DNA of 63,591 nucleotides, filler included, from Folioceros fuciformis (taxonomy: Eukaryota), in assembly GCA_049999805.1 (NCBI GenBank). It is 7 parts of 7 records of this genome, joined end to end, with 100 filler letters (N's around TTAATTAATTAA, not from the genome) between each part and the next. Parts side by side here need not be neighbours in the genome. Positions count along the whole stretch, not along the records: positions 44,522 to 50,947 come from JBNGIO010004939.1; 6 more parts are not named here. One strand, written 5' to 3'. The notes beneath the pieces were generated by a model that ran no database searches, had not been told where the DNA came from, and worked only from the letters and a program-made list of their open reading frames with translations. How positions within the stretch are numbered: position 1 is the stretch's first letter; every line of letters begins with the position of its first letter. Shown here one piece after another: positions 9,610 to 60,163 of this stretch. The position numbers and the translations under genes were made by a program.

Positions 9610-10158
9610 TGTGAACCTCCAAAGTTTGGGGTAGTAGTTTGTTTTGGTTGAAAAAGGGTTAATAGTNNNNNNNNNNNNNNNNNNNNNNNNNNNNNNNNNN
9701 NNNNNNNNNNTTAATTAATTAANNNNNNNNNNNNNNNNNNNNNNNNNNNNNNNNNNNNNNNNNNNNCCCGTACTTTCGGATGCTGGACAGAGCTCCCCTT
9801 TCTCTAGGGTTTTTATACCCTGCCTGCTTTCTCCCCTTATGCGCGTCTGGCTACCTCCAGTCGTCCCTCCGGTAACGGTTGCCCTGCCGGCTACCGTTGC
9901 CCCATCACCTCGGGCCCTTACTTTTGCCTACCTTAATGTTCTCAATGACCCGAGGGCCAAGGAGGCACTCGCTGCTTCCCCTTCCTTGTCCCGATCCCCC
10001 GTCCTCCCCAAACCCCGAAGCCCAAGGTGGACTTTAGGGGTAAACACCCCGGTCTTACTCGCTTACTAAGCCGATTTGCCTATCCCTTCACAAAAGAATC
10101 ACAACCTGCTCATTCCGTCGCTCAAAATGGCGGTTCCGAAAGTTTTTTTTCGTTCACA
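9610..10158 (+). mobile_element. LTR termini TGTGAAC...GTTCACA separated by a linker gap
   Basis: Left end matches the 1-488 family; right end is its 7-bp inverted repeat. Flanks ATGGG and GGGGG do not form a TSD, so these may be two different copies. Confidence 0.5.
9667..9766. other. Assembly gap with artificial TTAATTAATTAA linker (also 13724-13823, 17182-17281, 44422-44521, 50948-51047, 60064-60163)
   Basis: N44-TTAATTAATTAA-N44 puts stops in all six frames. Plain N gaps lie at 17964-18063, 35890-35899 and 36960-37059. Confidence 0.97.
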
Positions 10159-12444: not shown

Positions 12445-12840
12445 GGGGTGGCCTGTTGCTATGATTGTTCCTGGTTGGCCTGCTTAGGGTTTAGGGTTCC
12501 CTTGACAGACGGGATATATTTTCATCCTTATGATTGTTCTTGGTTGGGCTTCTGCTATGATTGTTCCTCCAATCTCCCTTGACATATGGTTGGCCTGCTG
12601 CTATGATTGTTCCTCCAATCTCCCTTGATAGATGGTTGGCCTGCTGCTATGATTGTTTCTAGTTGGCCTACTACTATGATTGTTTTTGGTTGGCCTACTG
12701 CTATGATTGTTCCTGGTTGGCCTGCTTAGGGTTTAGGGTTTAGGGTTCCCTTGACAGACGAGATATATTTTCATCCCTATGATTGTTCTTGGTTGGCATT
12801 CTGCTATGATTGTTCCTCCAATCTCCCTTGACTATATTTT
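12445..12840. repeat. Complex tandem repeat (GGTTGGCCTGCTGCTATGATTGTTCCT units) with TTTAGGG motifs
   Basis: About 8-10 copies of CTATGATTGTT. A higher-order block (~12455-12580 vs ~12695-12830) contains TTAGGGTTTAGGG. Confidence 0.8.
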
Positions 12841-13723: not shown

Positions 13724-13823
13724 NNNNNNNNNNNNNNNNNNNNNNNNNNNNNNNNNNNNNNNNNNNNTTAATTAATTAANNNNNNNNNNNNNNNNNNNNN
13801 NNNNNNNNNNNNNNNNNNNNNNN

Positions 13824-15730: not shown

Positions 15731-17281
15731 CTATTGGTGGCAAATAGATCATACAAATGCCTACGAAGGCAAGTATGTCGCAGTATACTTATTGCGTGGT
15801 GCTGAGCCCAAAGTCTTGGAAAGAAGATGGAAGAGGTGTAGACCAAAGCGACCTTCAAATGTTCAAAAGCTCTACATTAAGAAAACTTTTATCGTGTACC
15901 ACAGATTCCACCTGTCACACTAAGATTTGTATGCTATGGACAAAATGATCATATGTGAGAAATTGGCCTTGCTACAATCGTATAAGACGGAGTAGAGGCA
16001 GAGTTAAATGACTATGAGATTAATATGGACGAAGGTGCAGATTTTCATTACAATGATGTATGAATGGATAAAGATGAAGAGCATTTCCCATTGCAGGTGC
16101 ATGATTCATATAGGCTTCAAAGAAGAAACACTTACGTGAGTGCCCTAAACACCCACAGCAGACAGGGCTTGCAATAATCGTCATTCTTCATTAACTATAA
16201 CGCATGCAGATCACTTTGTTTATGAGCAATGGAGCATTGATGCTCGCACATCTCGTGCAAAGGACAGGCCTATCAAGAGAAGGGTGCAATTTCTTTTGCA
16301 CCGAACTTGTTGTTGTGTAGTGAATGAGGGGGCTTGTGATACAATGTTTTATTGACATTTGCTCAAATTTCCAAATCTTGATTGTCAAGTACCTCTAGTT
16401 GCTAAAGACAATTCATAATATGGAGCAAAATGGAATACCCTAGACGTTGTGTGTGAGATCCATGCATTCAGAAAGTCACAAGTACATAAGTTGATTGACT
16501 CTTAAAGATTGGAGGGCGTGGATATGTTGGCACCCCTTACAGTAGGCCATTTTCTAAAGACCATTATTCATTGTGTTTTGGTGCAATCTTTAGGAAGAAC
16601 CCCATCATGCCCAACCACTTATGTAAAGGGAAAGAACATGACCTCACAAATGCGTTGTTGGCAACAAGCAACATGTGTGCTATGAAGCAACATGTGTGCT
16701 ATTTTCGCAATAATTTGTTGATGCACACAATTATAGGACCATGCCAACACAATTATAGGACCATGCCAATGAGGCTTGGCCATCTTAGGTGCCAATGCAT
16801 AATGAAACTTGACCATGATTTTAGGCCTCTAATGTAAACAAATGGTCAAAGACGTTATCTTAGTGCCCATGAAGGTGACCCTTCCATGTATATTGGCAGA
16901 AAAAGACTATTCTAGCATATTCCAACCTTTTATGTACTTTGACTTGAAATAATATATATAAATTTAATTTATTAAATTTATCATATGATAATAATTTTTA
17001 TAATTAAATTAAGTACTTAAAAAATAATGAATTAAAATTTAATAATTATATAAAAAGTTAAATATAATTAATTAGAGGATATAATAACAATGCAGTTGGA
17101 AGAAAAAGATTGGTTTTATGGATTGATCATTATTGAATATTGATCTTTATAGAGATTTACTATTTTCTAGTTCGACGATGANNNNNNNNNNNNNNNNNNN
17201 NNNNNNNNNNNNNNNNNNNNNNNNNTTAATTAATTAANNNNNNNNNNNNNNNNNNNNNNNNNNNNNNNNNNNNNNNNNNNN

Positions 17282-18439
17282 AAGAGGCGGCGTCCGCAGA
17301 TCTTTGAAGATCAGACATCCTCCGAAGTCTCAGGATAGTCTAAGAGGTGGTAGATCCTTGTGGTGGTAGGGCCAACTCATTGGTGGCAGGATGTGCTAGA
17401 AATCTAAATAAGTGGTTGGTGACAGTCGGCTAGGCTAGTGGTCCTATTAAACTAATATTTGTCAAGTTAGAGAGAGGTGAAGTCAGAGAGAGAGGCTCCT
17501 ATAAGATCAGGTGAGCCTATAGGAGGGAGGGGGTAGTCATTCACTTTGGGAGTCAATCTATCACTTCGTGAGCTCTTGGAGGTACTCTCTTCATGAGCTC
17601 TTGTGGTCTGTCCCTGCTTGGTTTAGGACCTGCAGTGTGTTTGCCGGCTGTGCAACGTCTGGTAGGATCGCAAGCCGCGTGTTGTCGGTTGTACAGTGTC
17701 TGGTAGGATCACAGGGTGTAATGACTAGGGTGAAGGGGCTTGCCCTTAGCTCTTGATTGTAAAGGATGTGTCTTCCTCTCGACCTGTCCACTCTTGTTCC
17801 CTGTTTGGACAAGTGCTGTAGGCCGGTCATGTTTCATGGCGTCTGGTAAGGTTGTGGGGAGGAGATATCCGAGAGGGGAGTGTGTTCCCTTCTTTCTTTT
17901 CTTTGGGGTTAGTCTAGTGCCTCTTGCCGGGTAGGAGGAGTCAGTAGGGAAGTGTAGAAGGTANNNNNNNNNNNNNNNNNNNNNNNNNNNNNNNNNNNNN
18001 NNNNNNNNNNNNNNNNNNNNNNNNNNNNNNNNNNNNNNNNNNNNNNNNNNNNNNNNNNNNNNNAGGGAAGTGTAGAAGGTAGTGGTGTCGTTGTTGGTTG
18101 CTGGTGTTGGTGTTGGAGCGAGAGAGTGAGTGAGTGAGTGAGGGAAGTCGCAGATCTAAGAGGTCAGGGTCGTTGTAGTGACTGGAGTGAGTTTGTGGCC
18201 ACCAAGAGAGGTGCAGCTGACCGCTGGACAGCAAGGCCTGTCCTACGCCTGATCGGAGCTGGAAGGGAGCCCTCGAATCCATCATTGAGTTGATTGAGTC
18301 CGACCCTCCATCCACAGCAGCAAGGAACCTCATCGCTCCTTCGTGGGAACGGAACCCAATGTCTCAACGATAGTGGGATAAGTGTGGCCACTAACGGTGG
18401 AACCCGTTGGCAATTAGTGCCCGGGGTTTTGCCTCCACA
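17282..18439 (+). mobile_element. Long Gypsy-type LTR (partial)
   Basis: Ends GTTTTGCCTCCACA; homologous to 9090-9609 and 50677-50947. Confidence 0.75.
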
Positions 18440-37200: not shown

Positions 37201-39431
37201 TGACCTAGCTGCCATGTCCCGGTCTGCTGAACAGGTGCAACTCTTCTAAAGAACCTATCAACGTGCAAGGGACACAATGCTGTGAAAAGGGCACCAATCT
37301 GGTTGCAGCGCTTCAGATCCTGATGGCCTCTTGTGCTGGTGCAAGGCGCTCCCGCCTTTGTTGTGCAGCGGAAATTTCAGGTTTGCAAGCCATCAGCCGA
37401 GGACAGAATTGGTAGGCTGAATTCTCCCTCGTCTTGGGTTTGCACAATGCTCCCTCATGTTGCAATGTGCAGATCAGACAATTGTTGTGTGATAGAAGCC
37501 ACAAGATTCTTGATTATTTGTAGCTTCGCTTCGAAAATCCAAGGGATTTGATCAGCTGTTCGTGGTTCTGTCTTCAGATCGTCAACTCTGATCTTCAGCA
37601 CTTCTTGGTTTGACAGCAAACGTGACAGAGTCCTCTCCACACGAGCCACGGTGGCCAAGGTCCTGTCAGCAGTACCTTGGCTAGTTTGTGGAATTGAATT
37701 TCTGTCTATTTGCTGATCACGTCGTGTTGCTGTGGTTCTAGGTTGGAAGAGAGACTCGACAAGGGGCAATTCACGTGCTTCATAGCGTAGATTGTGATTC
37801 TGTCCCCTTTGTTGACAACGTGCTTTATATAACCTATCCGTAATTGGATTTCTATGTGCACTTTGAACTCTTAATCTCCCACTAGAATGGGTTTCTGTAA
37901 AACTTCTAAGGCAAATTTCTGGGTAGTTCTGCTCGTATAGGTCTAGCACGGTATTTGGTGGTACAAAGGAATTGGAGACATGTCATCCATGACGATGTCT
38001 CCTTTTTGTGTCTAGATTACGTGCATTCCTAGCAGACGCTCCCTGCCCCTAGGCATTCTGCATGGAAGTTGCTGAGATGCAGAGCATGGGCTCTGATACC
38101 ATGTAAACGTTCGGGATAGAACGAAGACGGCGAGAGCAGAACAAAAATTGATTGAATTAATTAACAACAAGGGTCTCATATGTCTTTTATATTTAAACCT
38201 AATCACGAACGGTCAAATGTCCAATGATCACATACGATCTATAAACAATAACCTAAGCGAGTGTAGGTTAACCAATATGTACGTATGCGTATGTATTCTA
38301 ACAGGTTGCCTAAGGACAAGAAGGCATTGCCATGCAAATGGGTGTATAAGATGAAGGACATACCCCATTATGGCAAACCCAAGCACAAGGCACGATTGAT
38401 TGCTAAGGATTTAAGCAAAAGCAAGGTATTGACTTTGATGAGATTTTCTCACCGGTTGTCAAAATGACCACATTGCGATGTGTTCTTGGTTTGGTTGCAA
38501 GGCACGACATAGAACTCGTCCAGATGGATGTGAAGTCGGCATTTCTATATGGTGATCTCCAGGAAGAGGTATACATGTAGCAACTAGAGGGTTTCATTGA
38601 GAAAGACAAAGAGAATCTGGTGTGCAGGTTAAAGAAGAGCCTTCATGGTTTGAAGCAGGCACCCAAGGAGTGGTATTTCAAGTTCCACTCATTTATGCTT
38701 TTTCAAGGCTACAAACGTAGCGATGAGGATCATTGCCTCTATACGAAGCAAGCTAAGGATGGAAGCTTGCTCATTTTGGTCCTCTATGTGGATGATATGC
38801 TAATAGTGATGAGATTTTAGCGTTAAAGTCAAAGTTGAATGCTCGCTTTAACATGAAAGACTTGTGAGAAGCAAGTCATATTCTTGGCATGCGTATTTGT
38901 CAAGACTGACAGAAGCGTTTGCTTTACCTGTCTCAGACTAAATACATTTACAAGGTGCTTCAACGTTTCAATATGGAAAAGGGGAAGGTATTGAGTACTC
39001 CATTGCCTTCATATGTGAAACTTTCAAGCAAGGATTGCCCAAGGTCTGCGAAGGACAAAGCTGAAATGGAGAAGGTTCCATACTCATTAGCTGTAGGGAG
39101 TTTGATGTATACAATGATTGCTACACGTCATGACATTGCCTTTGCAGTGGGAGTGGTTAGCAGGTTTATGTCAAACCCTGACAAGAAGCATTAGGAGGCA
39201 GTGAAAGGAGTTATGAGGTACTTGAATGGTACAAAAGCTTTGTGCTTATGTTTTGGTAGTGAAGATGCATCTGTAGTGGGATATACAGATGCTGATTATG
39301 GAGGGGATATGGACAAAAGGAGGTTCACATCAAGTTATGTCTTCATGTGCACTGGAGGGGCAGTCTCATGGTGATCTTGTTTGCAATCGTACATAACGCT
39401 ATCTACCATAGAGGCCGAGTATGTTGCAGCG
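31290..39431 (+). mobile_element. Older Copia RT-RNase H fragment split by the 31398-38303 insertion
   Basis: KNQTWELVRL (to 31397) continues as PKDKKALPCKWVYK (from 38309). Also [21 protein letters not shown]; many stops. Confidence 0.9.
31398..38303 (-). mobile_element. Full-length Copia element with both LTRs and 5-bp TSD (coding region degenerate)
   Basis: LTRs 31398-31594 and 38102-38303 (TG..CA, ~12 substitutions and 2 indels by eye); TSD GGTTG; PBS-Met 38090-38101; PPT 31595-31603; gag-PR-INT-RT-RH at 36835-32442. Confidence 0.96.
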
Positions 39432-44421: not shown

Positions 44422-44741
44422 NNNNNNNNNNNNNNNNNNNNNNNNNNNNNNNNNNNNNNNNNNNNTTAATTAATTAANNNNNNNNNNNNNNNNNNNNNNN
44501 NNNNNNNNNNNNNNNNNNNNNAAGCTATTTTGAATTCTATCTTAAACATAAGAAGTACTGTTTTGGAGTACACAACTAAGGCTGATAATCTGCAGGCAAG
44601 ACAGGAGAGACTTGAGAATCTGAGGAACTCAGATCTAAGAACAATGGTACAGCAAGAAAAGGAAATAGATAGCCTCAGGGAGCAGCTTGCTCGCCTAACG
44701 GCTACACCACTTTAAATTAGGAACTCTCACTTACAGGCATC

Positions 44742-47700
44742 ATGGGGTCAAAGGATGATTCTGGTTCTGACAGATTGCAAGAGAAAGATAGGCTGACCTT
44801 ACATAATTTTGATGCCTGGAGTTTCAGGATACGGTGTATCTTAAATGAGAAGCTCTTGATGGATGTCGTTGATGGGACTGCCCCTAGAAAAGTTGATGGA
44901 CAGCCCTCTGGTCCCCCTACACCTGGTGGCACGATACCTAGATACACACAGAAGGATGAGTTAGAGTGGAAACACAAAGACAGGAAGGCAAGAAATATTC
45001 TTGTGGCTTCTGTGTCTCAAGAGATGATACCACATATAAAAATGACGCAGACTTCAAACGAGGTCTGGTCCTTGCTATCAGACACCTATGATACAAAGGA
45101 TATGGTAGCAGAGGCTGCAGCTACACTGCAGTATCAGATACTTCGCATGAAAGAGAGTGACTCAGTGGAGAGCCATGTCTCAAAGTTTAGGGCTGCGAGA
45201 GCCAGACTAGCATCTTGCGGAGTAATCATCTCGGAATCAAGAGCAGCAGTTCAGCTGTTATTATCACTTCCACCAAGCTATGAATTCTTTAGCTCAAGCC
45301 TTCAAACATCGGCGACGGTCACACCTGCCACGGCCACAACTCCAGCTACATCAAATCTTACAGTACAAAAGGTGGTTGGAGCACTGTTGCAGTTCGAAGC
45401 AAACAGGAAACAAATGAAGAGTAACCCCTCTTCTTCTCATACCTCTCATAAACAGAGTGATACAGCTCTGTTCTCTGGAAGGGGTAGAGGGCGTGGACGT
45501 GGCAGGGGGCGAGGAAGAGGAGGTTTAGGCAGGGGTCGTGGTCACCCCATGACTCCCTCCTCATCTCCTAGTCAGCCATCCTCTAATTTCACCTCAAAGC
45601 CTGGAAACTGCAACTATTGTGGTAAGCCAGGACATTGGGTGAAGGATTGCAGAAAGAAAGCTAGAGATGACAGTGTAAAGGGGAGATCATCAGAAGCTCA
45701 TACCGCTAGAGCTTCAACACCAGGATTGTTGGTGGCATGCCTCACGTCTTCAAAAGAAGGCTGTCAGAAGTGGTTCCTAGATAGTGGAGCCTCAAACCAT
45801 ATGTGTTCAAAGAGGAAGTCTTTCATCACATACGAGAAATCCCCTACATGTCACCAAACAGCAGTTGTGTTAGGAGATAACTCAACAATACCAATCAAGG
45901 GAGCTGGAACAATTCAGATTACTTTACAGGATGGCAGCTATTTACTCCTCGTGAATGCTCTTCACGTTCCAACTCTTGCAAAGAATTTGGTTAGTACAAT
46001 GGCCCTAGGAAAGATGAACCAGTATAGAATCACCTTTGAGGGTCTTGAGTGCCATATATCTCGTCTATCAGATCCTACAGTGGTTATTGCCAGGGGAACT
46101 CCTCTGTTTGATCTATATTTGTTAGACTTTCTCTCCGATGTTCCTCCTTCTACAGCTAATGTTGCTGTTCAGAATATCAAGGACGGACATTCCAGTAGTG
46201 CCTTTAAGTGGCACTGCCGTTTGGGTCACCCCAACATACAAGCTATGAGAAGAATGCTTCGGGAAAAACTGGTAACTGGATTCAGTGAACATGAACTCTC
46301 TGATCTTGAGTTGTGTGTTGCCTGCGTATATGGAAAGCAATTCAAGTCACATTTTGGTAGTGGTAAACCACGAAAGGCAACACATATTCTCGACCTTGTA
46401 CATACCGACATATGTGGCCCAATGTCGGTACCCTCCTGGGGAGGCGCTAAATATTTTGTTGTGTTCGAGGACGATAAGTCACACTTCACAGTGACAGAGC
46501 TTTTACGCCACAAGAGTGAAGTATTCTCCAGCTTCAAGCGGTACCTTGCATACGCAGAAAGGCAGATTGGACATCAGCTGAAGTGTATCAGAAGTGACAA
46601 TGGCAAGGAGTACTTATCCCTAGCCTTCCAGGAATATTGTCAGGAGAGGGGGATAACTAGACAACTCACCATTCCGTATCACTCTGATATGAATGGACGT
46701 GCGGAGCGTCGTCACAGGACCATCCAGGATGCTGCTCGCTCTCTTCTGTATCAAGGAAGACTGTCAGTTAAATTCTGGGCGGAAGCAGTGCAAGTTGCGA
46801 CATACCTACAAAATCGTTCTGTTGTTTCATCTCTTCGCAGCTGTACACCCTTTGAAGTGTGGACTGGGTGTAAACCAGATCTGGCACATCTCCGAGTGTT
46901 TGGGAGTACCGCCTATGCTCATGTGCCTGATCAGCTTCGCCACAAGTTTGACTATAAGTCGAAACGTCACATCTTCATTGGCTATACAACGGGTATACAT
47001 GGTTATAAGTTGTTCGACCCTGTTACTCGAAAGGTTTCACATGCCAGGACAGTTGTTTTCGATGAGCGTTCTGTTCTTAAACCGCCAGCTCATTCCTTTG
47101 ATGATTTCACAGATCCTGATGTTGTAGAAGTTGATAACCAACCTGTTGAGCCAGAGGATGATGTTAGTGCTTTTGAATCTGCCACGTTTCCTGACTCAGA
47201 TCCTTCCTTTACAACTCTTGACCCTTTACCTGTGGTGCCTCCCCCACAAGCCCTTGGTGATCCCCCTGACTAGTCTGATGATACACATCTAGATGATCCA
47301 CCTGCTGATCTCGATGATGTCTTGCTTCCTGTACTTGTACAGTCAGACGATGATGAACCTCCAGCCCCAGTTATTCCACAGCCTGTTATTCAACATCCTG
47401 AGCGGTTCGAAGATGATCCAGTCGAATATGTGATGCCCATTCCCCAGCCTGCCCCTCTTCGGCGGTCTACTCGAGTGCACAGAACACGTGAGAATTGGAA
47501 GGAGGCACCTTACAGCAGTGAAGACTTTTGGAAAGTCCCTCGACCTCCTGGTTCAGCTACTGATGGAGTGGTGGTTGATTTCGTTAACCTTGCTTTCGAA
47601 CCTGGTTGTGAACCACAAAGTTATCAAGAGGCTGTTAGTGGGCCAGAGGCCAAGCTTTGGAAAGCAGCAATCCAGTCTGAATATGACTCATTGATCCACA

Positions 47701-49512
47701 ATCAAACCTGGAAGATAGTTCCTCCGCCTCAGGGGAGGAAAATTGTCACCTCGAAGTGGGTGTTCAAGTTGAAATATAAGGCGGATGGCTCTATCTCCAG
47801 ATACAAGGCCAGGTTAGTAGCTCGTGGGTTCTCTCAAGTCCCTGGCTTAGACTACCATGATACTTTTAGCCCTGTAGTTAAGTCTCAGTCTCTTCGTGTC
47901 CTCTTCTCCATGTCTGCGTTTTTTGGCCTTTTCATCCACCAGATGGATGTTAAGACCGCCTTTCTGTCAATAGGATCGACTCCAGTCTACGTGCAAGTGT
48001 AGGAGAGGAGAGGAGAGAAGAGAGGGTGGTATTGGTGATCACAACCATGAAAACAATACACATCACCACTGTCTTACTATGGAGGTCCGAGGTCTCCATT
48101 TAAGTAGTACATTTAGGGCTACACAACTTCCAGGTTCAATATGGGATAATCTACACTATCCTAAGTTCACTAATAACTAGAACTAGTCTAGTATGAACCC
48201 AACTGGGATAACTAACACCACATGAGTTTAGCTCATATAGAGCTCGATAACTCAACACTTTCTCCATGGGAAATTAGAGGAAGATATCTTTATGCAACAG
48301 CCTGAGGGGTACGAGGTAGAAGGGAAAGAGGACTGGGTCTGTCAGTTACTCAAAACTATCTACAGCTTGAAGCAGAGTCCCCGTGATTGGTATGAAGTCA
48401 TAGATGAGTTCCTGCTAGGACTTGGTTTTCTTAAAAGCTCAGCAGATTCGAATGTTTATCTCCTGCAAGACAAAACAGGTTTTGTTATACTAGCTTTGTA
48501 CGTAGATGATTGCATACTCCTAGGCACTGATCTTGAGGGGATTACCAGAGTTAAAGGTCTGCTGTCTGGTCGCTTTGAAATGGTAGATGTCGGGGAGTTG
48601 TCCTACTGCCTCGGCACTCAGCTGTCTCGTGACTCTGCAAGTGGCACATTGGTAATACATCAGCAGAAGTATATTCTGGATATGCTATTCAAGTATAAGC
48701 TCGAGGAAGCTAAGGTAGCAATTACACCTCTTGAAACTGGTTGCAAGTTGTCCAGCTCACAGTCTCCAGCGACTGATGCTGATAAGCAGGAGATGGAGGC
48801 AGTTCCCTATGCCCAAGCAGTAGGTTCACTCATATACTGCTCAAACAATAGTAGGCCTGATGTAGCTCTCCCAGTAAGCATGGTCTCTCAGCACCTCAAG
48901 AATCCAGGAAAGGTACACTGGTCAGCTGTTAAGCGGATTCTTCGATATTTGAAGGGCACGAGTGATCATGGTATACATTATTCCAAACAAGCCTTTGAAG
49001 GAGAGGAGCTTATGCTGATAGGATACTGCGATGCTGACTGGGCAGCAGATCCTGATACGAGGAAGTCCGTTTCAGCATATGCTTTTCTTCTAGCTGGTGG
49101 AGCAGTTACATGGTCCTCAAAGAAACAAACGACTATGTCACTCTCGTCAACAGAGGCAGAATACTCTGCCTTGACACAGGCGTCTAAAGAGGCAATTTGG
49201 CTGAGAAGATTGTTATCAGATCTTGGACAACCACAGCGAGAACCAACAACTATATATTGCGACAATCAATCAGCGTTAGCTTTGGCACAAAATCCAGTAT
49301 TTCATGCCAGAACTAAGCATGTTGAAGTCCATCATCACTTCATTCGACATGCTGTTGAGACAAAACAAGTCAAGCTTGAGTATGTGCCGACTGATGCTAA
49401 TGCTGCGGATTTGCTTACGAAAGCCTTACCTAGGATGAAGCACTATCAGTTTAAGGAGTCCTTGGTTGTCCTAGGACCCCTCCACATAACTAACGTGTCC
49501 CACAGCAAGTAA
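44742..49512 (+). pseudogene. Copia gag-pol polyprotein with one in-frame TAG (47271) and a solo-LTR insertion
   Basis: CNYCGKPGHWVKDC, WFLDSGAS, WHCRLGH, RSDNGKEY, QMDVKTAF, LYVDD, GYCDADWA. Confidence 0.92.
47965..48257. mobile_element. Solo LTR (293 bp) with 5-bp TSD CTTTC
   Basis: TGTCAA...TCAACA flanked by CTTTC on both sides; removing it restores KTAFLHGKLEEDIFMQQPEG. Confidence 0.92.
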
Positions 49513-50676
49513 GAGAGTCTGTCTGAGGAGTCAGCTGTTAGGCATGCTGGAATTCATCTGACACTAACTTCCTACCTATGAGATGGTCACCAGGGATGTT
49601 TAGACCTCTTCAGAGTCATCAGAGGAAGAGGGGGATAGGGCTCTTGACTTCCCCTCCCTGTTCATTCCCTGGAACCCTACAAAGTTAGGATCAAAGTCAG
49701 GGTCATTGTCGTCAGATGTGTCTTCATTCTCATCCATCCAGTCAATGCCTGCCTCTTCAGCCATCCTTTCCTTGGGCACTGAACAGTTTTTAGAGTGAGT
49801 ACCTACAGCAGGTCAAACCACAATAATTGTGTGCAGTAGATCAAACTTGTGCTGTGGACTCACTGTAGTATGATATGAAGTTGCCGTCTTGTCCGCCCCA
49901 GCGCCACCAACTCTGTCAATACATGGTCATCTTTGTAGTAGGGCAGATGTAGACCTCAGGCGTCAAAGGGTTGTTAGCTCCATCCCCATCTGTCACTACC
50001 TGTCGCATCTTGTGTAGGTGTCCAACCGGCACGGTGAAGACTCTGGGCTAATATTTTTCCGGAATCACAACAGCGTTCAGTCCCTCGGACAGAGAGAAGC
50101 GTCATCAGGGCACTTGCAAAGCTTGCGACGGAGAACAGCCATACCAGGGGACTCCTTCGCCTTTGGAGGAAGAGGCGTCGCGTTTAAGGCATCTAGCACC
50201 TTCTGCAGCTCGTCCAGGACTGGCTGCACCTCAGGCGCCGCCTCTGAGAGATCAATAGGCTCAGCCCTGGAACCCGACATGGTGTGGTGTTGAGCTGCTC
50301 AGAACAGGTGACAGTCTCTGCTGTAGAGGCCGAGCTTCTGAGTGGTACGAGACAGACTGGTGAAACGCGTTTATCGCGGGCACGTTCACACCCTAAACAG
50401 CTTTTAGCAGATGATTTGCTTAATTAGTTTGCTATTTAGACTGTATATACAATGAGAGGGGGTGTTAGAAATAATAGGTAATTATTAGTACATTGTTATA
50501 TACGTAGAACTTACATTAGGGCACCCAACGGGTAACCCTAGAGGTAGTTATTAGTTGTAACCGTTTTTATGGGTCTCGGACACTTTTGTGCTGAGTTCGC
50601 CTGACATATAAGATATTCGTTGCTAGTGTGTCTTGAGCGTGTGTGATCTGCATGGGAACGATTCACAAACGCAACA

Positions 50677-50947
50677 AAGTCAGAGAGAGAGAGATAGGCT
50701 CCTATAAGATCAGGTGAGCCTGTAGGAGGAGGGAGTCATTCACTTTGGGAGTCAGTCTATCTCTTCGTGAGCTCTTGGAGGTCCTCTCTTCATGAGCTCT
50801 TATGGTCTGTCCCTGCTTGGTTTAGGACTTGCAGAGTGTTGCCAGCTGTGCAACGTCTGGTAGGATCGCAAGCCGTGTGTTGCCGGCTGTACAGTGTCTG
50901 GTAGGATCGCGGGCAGCGTGTTGCCGGTTGTATAGTGTCTGGTAGGA
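50677..50947 (+). mobile_element. Gypsy-type LTR fragment (insertion target of the Copia to its left)
   Basis: Homologous to ~17480-17710, with an internal ~35-40-bp tandem duplication. Confidence 0.8.
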
Positions 50948-51047
50948 NNNNNNNNNNNNNNNNNNNNNNNNNNNNNNNNNNNNNNNNNNNNTTAATTAAT
51001 TAANNNNNNNNNNNNNNNNNNNNNNNNNNNNNNNNNNNNNNNNNNNN

Positions 51048-54000: not shown

Positions 54001-55845
54001 CCCACGGGCTTGGTACTCACGCATACACAACTTTCTAATTGCACATGGTTATTTACCTATCCATGCTGACTCTAATGTGTATGTGAAGAGAGGGAAGAAC
54101 AAAGAGTTTCTGGCACTGGCCATTTATGTAGATGACTTAATTCTTATGTCTAACAGTCTGGAGATGATCAATGAGCTCAAAGATCTACTTAGCGGCGAAT
54201 TCAAAATGACAGATGTTGGAGCTTTAGCATTCTGCCTTGGTATGCAAATCCTACGAAACTGAAAACTCAGACGCATTTTCATGCATCAAGCTAAATATAT
54301 TCAGAGTATTCTAGCACGGTTTCAAATGCATAACTGTAAGCCTATGTCCACCCCTGTGGAACAGAATGTTAAGTATTCTGCACAACAAGGTGAAGTATCT
54401 GCAGAAGACATGGCATTCATGTCTGAATTTTCATACTCATCCCAAAGTGGCAGCTTAATGTATTTAATGCTAGGAACCAGACCTGACTTAGCATATGCTG
54501 TTGGGATGCTGTCCCAGTTCCTTGCAAATCCAGCAAAAGCACATTGGTTAGCTATGAGGAGAGTATTTCGGTATGTAAAAGCAACTGAAGATTGGGGACT
54601 CCTTTTTAGTGGAGAAGAAAAGGGAGCACTTACACTCATAGCATTCAGTGATGCAGACTGGGCTGGTGACCAGGATAGTAGAAGAAGTATTTCCAGTTAC
54701 GTAACCTTGCTAGCTGGCTGTGCCATTTCCTGGAGCAGTAAACGTCAGCCTACTGTAGCACTTTCCTCTACGGAGGCTGAGTACAAATCACTAACTGAAG
54801 CATGTAAGGAACTTATCTGGGCAGTGGGAGCACTGTCAGAACTTGGTGATGCACAGCAGCTCCCGGTGACACTTTGGTGCGATAATCAGAGTGCAATAGC
54901 ACTCTCGGAGAATCCACGCTATCATGCAAGAACAAAGCACTTGGAGGTTCAACACCATTTTATCAGAGAACAAGTCGCAAGTGGACTCGTCCAGGTTAGC
55001 TACTGCCCGACAGGCAACATGACCGCAGACATCCTCACAAAAGCTCTAGGCAAGTTGAAGCACGGCGAGCATTCCTATGGCATGGGCTTGCGGGCAGTAT
55101 CTGGTAAGTCAATCTGGAGTGTGGGAGCAGCAGCCACGGGCGCCTCTAGCTCGCGCACATCAGGCGCAGGAGCTCCAAGCTCAGAGACAGCTGCAGGGGC
55201 GGGCATCTCCAGCCCGACTTTTGAAGGCGCAGGCGCATCCAGCTCGCGCCCGACCTTGGCAGCTGGTACAGGCGCACCCAGCTCGCGCGCGACAGCAGCA
55301 GTTGCAGGCGCCAGTGGCGCAAGAGCAGCTGGAGCTGGCTTACCCAGCTCCCATATATCAGCCGGCGCGGATTCTGATGCCGCGCCAGCGGGATTCAGCG
55401 CGGGCAACCCCACTTGGCACACATGGAGAGCACGGCGACGGCGACGGCGATGGCGGCGGCAGCGACGGCACGGCAACGGCGGCGCGCTGGCATCCCTAGG
55501 AGGTAGCTCGGCCATCTCCAGCTGAAGCAGTTCACGGGCAGCAGCTGGAGGTGACCACACCTGGCGCGGCGATGAAGACGAAGACTGGCGTTTCATACGC
55601 CGGGCGTTTCTTACTCCGGGCAAAGTTTTTTTTTTTGCTTGGATTAGGTTTCATAGAAAGTTTTAAAGTTAATTAAGACCTAACTCCTGAGTGGGAGTGA
55701 AACTATAGTAAATAGTTATATATTCAGTAATTAGGTTAATTAGGAACCTTAGTAGTAAACCCTAATACGACAGTTATTATGGTTGTAACTACATTGTGCG
55801 GTGACGCTGACTTAGCGTTCAATCGCCTAAGGAAATCTATCGATC
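51048..55845 (+). mobile_element. Near-intact Copia element
   Basis: ORFs 51056-54262 and 54281-55525 are in the same frame; PPT GAGTGGGAG 55689-55697; LTR starts at 55698 and its right end is unresolved. Confidence 0.92.
51056..55525 (+). pseudogene. Copia gag-pol with a single in-frame TGA (54260) and an Ala/Gly/Ser-rich C-terminal read-through
   Basis: CGYCGLNNHTWEVC, WYIDSGAS, RSDNGGEY, QLDVKTAF, IYVDD, FSDADWA. Confidence 0.9.
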
Positions 55846-60063: not shown

Positions 60064-60163
60064 NNNNNNNNNNNNNNNNNNNNNNNNNNNNNNNNNNNNN
60101 NNNNNNNTTAATTAATTAANNNNNNNNNNNNNNNNNNNNNNNNNNNNNNNNNNNNNNNNNNNN

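Follow-up and report, generated by a model that had tools for sequence, protein, structure and literature searches.

Evidence for a spliced antisense accessory gene in a Ty1/copia lineage of Folioceros fuciformis

One Ty1/copia lineage in the genome of Folioceros fuciformis almost certainly carries a real and once-functional spliced gene on the strand opposite to gag-pol. The copy found in the window (the whole stretch of 63,591 nucleotides analyzed here, made of parts of seven records joined by filler) is a pseudogene. An earlier note on this DNA had proposed, from that copy, an antisense gene with two introns and an acidic tail; its exon model is half wrong, but the gene itself is real.

The element that hosts the gene (region 44742-50673) is a Ty1/copia, with the order gag-protease-integrase-RT-RNase H and Pfam matches to Retrotran_gag_2, Pol_BBD, gag_pre-integrs, rve, and RVT_2. 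Its gag-pol runs from 44742 to 49512 on the plus strand, RNase H ending at 49512, and is followed on the same strand by the polypurine tract (PPT; 50451-50462) and a 211-bp 3' LTR with TG...CA ends (50463-50673), which confirms the interval in which the antisense gene had been placed. Copias carrying the gene are compact (ca. 6.5 kb). The window copy is dead, with a stop at 47271-47273 and an insertion that breaks the RT. The latter (292 bp, 47966-48257) is similar to a solo LTR, with TG...CA ends and a 5-bp target duplication (CTTTC), and a ca. 92% relative of it sits within another locus, L080. The 5' LTR of the window element was lost in one of the N44-TTAATTAATTAA-N44 spacers (9667-9766, 13724-13823, 17182-17281, 44422-44521, 50948-51047, and 60064-60163), which are not biology; the LTR pair and the primer site TGGTATCAGAGC, presumably a tRNA-Met PBS, are present in its sister L074 and in L075. 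In L074 and L078 the PPT precedes the upstream LTR, i.e., these are head-to-tail tandem elements with a common LTR or an assembly collapse, and the repeat in L078 is 100% identical across 634 bp. A repeat of ca. 230 to 270 bp with 41-bp subrepeats flanks the 3' LTR of the window element (50688-50954) and recurs 33 kb upstream (17485-17715). Elsewhere in the window, at 12446-12835, there are tandem repeats of 27/46 bp with telomere-like TTAGGGTTTAGGGTT seeds. TTTAGGG repeats, together with the TGGTATCAGAGC primer site of the Copias, indicate a green plant.

A DNA search of the 87-Mb assembly recovered three sisters at 97 to 99% identity and eight relatives at ca. 70%. Using the protein of a naturally open relative as a query against its own genome, we found 69 further matches with 28 to 97% identity (matches, not copy numbers), and 50 of these loci were fetched. 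Wherever a locus holds the element's own RNase H, the gene is antisense to it and a few hundred bases downstream. Divergence among the copies is concentrated at third codon positions, with mismatch values of 0.33/0.27/0.57 in the core of the protein (last 62 codons before the intron donor, 17 copies) and 0.36/0.29/0.57 in the last exon (exon B; first 13 codons, 10 copies). The dN/dS ratio was 0.06 to 0.42 in 16 of 22 pairs, the other six being saturated at synonymous sites. The antisense frame accumulates only 5 stops and is open in 13 of 17 copies, against 28 to 86 stops and 0 to 2 open copies in each of the other five frames. Judged from the sequences alone, these values show purifying selection acting on the antisense protein, and the existence of an intron-containing antisense accessory gene with an acidic tail is supported, since dN/dS, frame stops, and splice signals all indicate that selection keeps it across the lineage. 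It could be argued that the reading frame is a product of chance or the shadow of a gene on the sense strand, given that no homolog was found outside the F. fuciformis genome and that no transcript was seen. However, the splice signals lie on the antisense strand, and the 28 to 86 stops in all the other frames (17 copies), the three sense ones included, exclude a shadow, so that we consider this explanation next to impossible.

The beginning of the gene was correctly located, with an ATG at 50280 and the string MSGSRAEPIDLS... both found on the minus strand. From there, exon A (49864-50280, minus strand) extends to a phase-1 donor; in the window it is broken by a deletion and two stops. A single conserved intron of 85 nt (GTGAGT...TTCAG, 49779-49863, minus strand, phase 1) separates it from exon B (49600-49778, minus strand), which codes for (S)xERMAEEAG..W, an acidic tail with 31% D/E and LSPSSS, and finishes with a stop at 49602-49600. 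The acidic tail described before is therefore present, ending at 49600. Five of the 50 loci stop short of the donor or have an interruption ahead of it and were dropped. In the remaining 45, the donor at 49863 is conserved as a GT located one base after the last Tyr/Phe codon (43 loci), and the longer form GT[AGC]AG appears in 38. For the acceptor we used only the 35 loci in which protein similarity was by itself enough to place the last exon, and 26 of them have AG at the junction (CAG in 20); the other nine, mostly AA, are read as probable decay. Intron lengths range from 82 to 110 nt and their remainders after division by three are mixed (2 in 19 loci, 1 in 14, and 0 in two), so that all three phases occur and the stretch can be neither coding nor a fixed frameshift. 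Being antisense to the genomic RNA, such an intron survives reverse transcription.

All this argues for one intron and not the two of 61 nt that had been proposed at 50144-50084 (GTATGG...GAG) and 49863-49803 (GTGAGT...CTGTAG), although both strings are indeed there. For the second, the donor stands, whereas the conserved acceptor is the CAG ending at 49779, which makes the intron 85 nt long. The AG of 49803 is found at the matching alignment column in only 3 of 22 nonredundant introns; in the window copy it is in the same frame as 49779 and could be a minor alternative acceptor. The first does not hold, as this segment encodes a Cys-His motif and diverges with a third-position bias (0.23/0.21/0.52; 13 codons, 6 copies), i.e., it is conserved coding sequence. 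The two-intron model, with its product of ca. 200 aa, can still count on a GT at 50144, an AG at 49803, and a 61-nt second intron that keeps the frame, and several relatives also have a GT at the position of the first segment, but they keep it because it is part of a Gly codon. Removing the first segment does not give a frame, its supposed acceptor lies at a deletion junction, and we found no conserved in-frame acceptor that could rescue a splice from the 50144 donor. Together with the rarity of the second AG, this makes the model very improbable, and the equal length of the two proposed introns is a coincidence. Aligning other copies, the check suggested with the original proposal, did yield open relatives with a conserved donor, but with one intron only and another acceptor.

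The defects of the window copy explain part of the confusion. The first segment encodes G-x-x-x-L-R-R-K-L-C-x-C-x6-C, and 14 copies chosen for examination have C-x-C-x6/7-C-x-x-H. In the window, this Cys-x-Cys-x6/7-Cys(-x-x-His) motif (50089-50118, minus strand, within the proposed first intron) is cut by a deletion whose junction is at 50087-50095 (minus strand). Its size is 200 to 205 nt when compared to each of the five relatives aligned (205 nt for two of them with an open frame), and it is common to all the window sisters that cover the spot. It takes out the His, a long coiled-coil-like helix, and a linker, and shifts the frame. The earlier note was right that the first junction is out of frame, but the jump derives from this deletion common to the subfamily. 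The two stops noted in the middle part are also real (50050-50048 and 49918-49916); the first one is private to the window copy and the second is common to the three sisters of ca. 98 to 99% identity that cover it.

In the longest naturally open relatives, the protein has 199 to 261 aa before the intron and 27 to 74 aa after it, above the ca. 200 aa expected from the window copy. From the N terminus it consists of a short motif, a variable linker, the Cys3His knot, a long helix, a core of ca. 80 aa, and the acidic tail (24 to 31% D/E). The N-terminal motif, P-I-x-L-S followed by acidic/Ser residues (EPIDLSE in the window, 50245-50280, minus strand), was found in 24 of the 41 loci with enough upstream DNA and looks like a candidate SUMO-interacting motif (SIM). 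The conserved core (49865-50086, minus strand, ca. 75 to 80 aa) ends in GNFISYY and belongs to no known family. It is mildly basic (7 to 11 K/R versus 5 to 8 D/E in 62 aa), which would be weak support for nucleic acid binding. No transmembrane segment is predicted, the maximum Kyte-Doolittle value of any 19-mer being ≤1.17 in seven copies. Two AlphaFold models have low confidence (mean pLDDT of 62 and 47), and in the first one the only confident part is a helix at residues 30 to 70, with a pLDDT of 84 to 97 over residues 41 to 70. Foldseek retrieved nothing at an E value of ≤0.001 with this model. Pfam gave only subthreshold coiled-coil matches (36 and 40 members scanned), the ESM Atlas no homolog (best scores, 0.82 and 0.77), and a set of 5.8 billion proteins no homolog among 4,328 and 8,000 candidates, although this search is word seeded and the set is probably thin for eukaryotic transposon proteins. 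Among 1.84 billion representatives there were two matches, a cadherin-repeat protein and a protein with 425-aa repeats, both of which we discarded as sums of weak repeats (best domain, 10.5 bits). A capture of the host Ies6/YL1_C was also discarded; the PDB match had an E value of 0.06 to 0.08, and hhalign against the host's own Ies6 gave a probability of 0.3%. The host Ies6-like gene used as a control, with a YL1_C domain in what is apparently a single open frame, is at L063:1132-1656 (plus strand). Thus, the antisense protein seems unlike any found in the databases searched (Pfam, PDB, two large protein sets, and the ESM Atlas).

The history of the gene can be read against that of its host elements. 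In a tree of RNase H, 28 of 32 rows, the window element among them, form one clade (90/90). The four rows outside are two other Copias of the window and the hits of two carrier loci (L044 and L049), which we read as nested or neighboring elements, as checked for L049 only. RNase H and core identities show a modest correlation (Mantel rho of 0.28, a value as high being reached in 14 of 2,000 permutations). In two unrelated Copias, RNase H runs straight into the end of the element, with no antisense gene. Taken together, these comparisons show that the gene has been inherited together with pol within one Copia lineage. Among 20 loci picked by a different gene of the element (the 5' ORF described below), the three that reach their own RNase H all contain remnants of the antisense gene, of which a profile detected two and visual inspection the third. 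The stretch between the Cys motif and the donor is uninterrupted in only 8 of 45 loci, and 3 of these 45 satisfied the checks on start, acceptor, and final exon as well. In four groups (the window group, L060-62, L052/53/57, and L043/45), sisters with a lesion in common were found at different insertion sites, with flanks that differ right at the LTR end, which shows, as far as can be read from the copies, that elements with a broken gene spread repeatedly. The product must then act in trans or be one that copies can do without for short periods, and the spread of broken copies fits a dispensable gene as well as a trans-acting one.

The lineage has a second extra gene. Between the PBS and gag there is a sense ORF of ca. 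172 aa, of which the window retains the last 63 codons (44524-44715, plus strand), the rest being in the gap; other copies are found at L074:7017-7532 (minus strand) and L078:6084-6591 (plus strand). It has 55 matches in the genome and a conserved helical C-terminal part, reaches no Pfam family above the cutoff, and its profile found no homolog among 4,707 candidates. Behind it, before the gag ATG (44730-44744), there is an acceptor-like AG followed by GCATCATG, also present in L074, L075, and L078, and a similar AG followed by GCA(A/G)GATG precedes the 5' ORF itself. It may be, by the look of these motifs, that splicing removes the 5' ORF from the RNA used to make gag-pol. Upstream of the gag of another Copia in the window (36718-36086) there is an ORF of 175 aa (37455-37982, minus strand) with no match to the former, possibly a different 5' extra ORF. 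In a neighboring Copia, RNase H is followed by an extension (54900-55650) rich in GC and in Ala/Gly/Ser, where each strand has an open frame, of 420 aa (54263-55525) and, in antisense, of 191 aa.

The antisense intron contains a conserved inverted repeat, (C)CAC-N7-GTG(G) (49818-49833, minus strand). Over 15 columns around it, the mean majority fraction is 0.87, compared to 0.41 and 0.49 in the intron on either side. A tight version of the pattern has 25 matches in the genome versus 3 for a reversed control, and 18 of the 25 are introns of the antisense gene; the other seven looked unrelated. Either an RNA hairpin or a palindromic DNA site, perhaps one bound by a dimer, could underlie it. Of 88 cells, 92% preserve pairing in the stem, including one compensatory change and two G-U wobbles; the covariation looks thin, and this level of pairing was reached by 5 of 500 shuffles. 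Minimum-energy folds include the hairpin for 18 of 22 antisense sequences and 10 of 22 sense ones. These two results favor a Rev/Rex-like system, in which the protein would bind this hairpin, either on the sense genomic RNA or on the pre-mRNA of its own gene, and control export, splicing, or packaging, the intron partly serving to house a cis element free of coding constraint. The element also seems to need control of splicing, considering the acceptor-like motif before gag in three of three elements. However, the stem has just 3 to 4 bp and a single covarying change, comparable both-side counts were obtained with slid controls, the loop is conserved in sequence as well (which is what a DNA site would show), and Rfam gave no matches (0). 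We see the Rev/Rex-like system as possible but rather unlikely.

Regarding expression, a CAGTCT initiator-like motif upstream of the ATG (50354-50359, minus strand) is a candidate internal antisense start. It was found in all seven upstream regions compared, inside the element and downstream of the PPT, and hints at an internal promoter that could replace LTR-driven transcription. When one RNA run was mapped to a relative (L081), coverage was limited to three short pieces of pol, without joints, which is uninformative on expression. Our view is that one Ty1/copia lineage has long had an accessory protein gene with a single spliceosomal intron, placed between RNase H and the PPT on the antisense strand. 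Its transcription would begin at the 3' end, from a promoter in the LTR or just inside it, and the transcript would be spliced at 49863/49779. The product would be a soluble protein of ca. 250 to 335 aa in which a SIM-like N terminus, a Cys3His zinc knot, and a coiled coil precede a novel core and an acidic tail. It would act in the nucleus, and in trans, as a regulator specific to its family, either an activator or an antisilencing factor, and it might recognize the CCAC-N7-GTGG element that its intron has retained. This soluble nuclear regulator is our best guess and a tentative one, held at somewhat less than even confidence, and against it is the fact that no homolog or confident fold ties the protein to any activity.

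The long confident helix and the acidic tail would also suit a structural or integration helper that joins Gag or integrase for nuclear import or target choice, a role that has been discussed for aORF-3R proteins (PMC7264820) and that would leave the intron motif without a link to the protein. Nothing in our analysis gives positive evidence for it, and because broken-gene copies kept spreading, the help would have to be supplied in trans or be optional; we find it quite unlikely. The same spread could instead reflect a brake on copy number, with the element held back by its antisense RNA or protein and the copies that lose it spreading faster. Several recent multicopy subfamilies do share lesions in the gene, with pol still open in some copies, and spliced antisense RNAs of Arabidopsis Copia have been proposed as regulatory (bioRxiv 10.1101/2024.04.02.587720). 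But long-term purifying selection on the amino acids would be hard to keep if cheaters shed the brake, and in old elements any gene is found broken in most copies, so that a brake appears improbable. Returning to a regulator that acts in trans, the most complete picture would be a four-gene Copia similar to a complex retrovirus (orphan 5' ORF, gag-pol, and the spliced antisense gene), whose zinc-knot/coiled-coil protein, an antisilencing or Rev-like factor working in trans, recognizes the CCAC-N7-GTGG of its own intron, with deletion copies such as that of the window spreading on the product of the few unbroken ones. As a whole, we regard this picture as unlikely.

Extra ORFs antisense to gag-pol and located between pol and the 3' LTR are known as aORF-3R or eORF-3'R, and their function is unknown (PMC7264820, PMC11963269, PMC4093653). 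The F. fuciformis gene occupies this same interval in the same antisense orientation, and it is present, or left as a remnant, in most copies and conserved like the other proteins of the element. It shares the antisense position and the family-wide presence with gene23 of Grande, RIRE2, Retand (TRP28), and the bean ORF2 families. However, those for which these sources state a superfamily are Ty3/gypsy (Retand and 15 bean ORF2 families), whereas ours belongs to a compact Copia and is short and spliced. Searches in Pfam did not find the TRP28 (PF04195), plant mobile, or SMC domains of the Retand/Ogre antisense ORFs. GENE23 of Grande is described as nuclear and with its own promoter. For most plant Copia lineages, the REXdb table gives no eORF-3'R, and 1% for SIRE (PMC6317226), the cells for Bianca and Ikeros being ambiguous. 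Its 250-codon cutoff would miss most copies of the gene described here, and the near absence of such genes might come from short spliced genes falling below it. In the same interval, the env-like ORF of SIRE (eORF-3'F) is in sense orientation (PMC6317226), and env-like ORFs often have transmembrane segments (PMC7264820); the F. fuciformis gene, in contrast, is antisense and its hydropathy maximum is that of a soluble protein (19-mer value of ≤1.17). Behind the pol of Boty/BcGypsy1 of Botrytis there is an antisense extra gene, brtn (PMC8365987), in the same arrangement as ours but in a fungal host, and neither DUF3716 nor a Zn2Cys6 motif gave a Pfam match among 36 and 40 members. In Arabidopsis, multiexonic antisense transcripts arise from the 3' end of related Ty1/copia families (bioRxiv 10.1101/2024.04.02.587720); they are spliced and reported as noncoding, whereas the F. 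fuciformis unit codes for a protein that is under purifying selection. We found no protein-coding spliced antisense gene of a plant Copia in the literature searched (mostly open access). The antisense layout is known from plant Gypsy and fungal elements.

As a working analogy only, the antisense protein may be compared with VANC of the VANDAL DNA transposons, which dimerizes via a coiled coil. VANC acts in trans and in a sequence-specific manner on motifs inside the element. Both proteins are encoded by the element and have a coiled coil (predicted in our case), but VANC comes from a DNA transposon and we found no sequence similarity between the two. A review of 2020 called for a search for antisense spliced transcripts (PMC7264820). 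The case described here makes the function of antisense extra ORFs testable, because one small genome offers a new family of small proteins with well-defined motifs, a candidate for their target element, and natural mutants that have lost the gene, and it suggests that Copia elements may be as gene rich as complex retroviruses.
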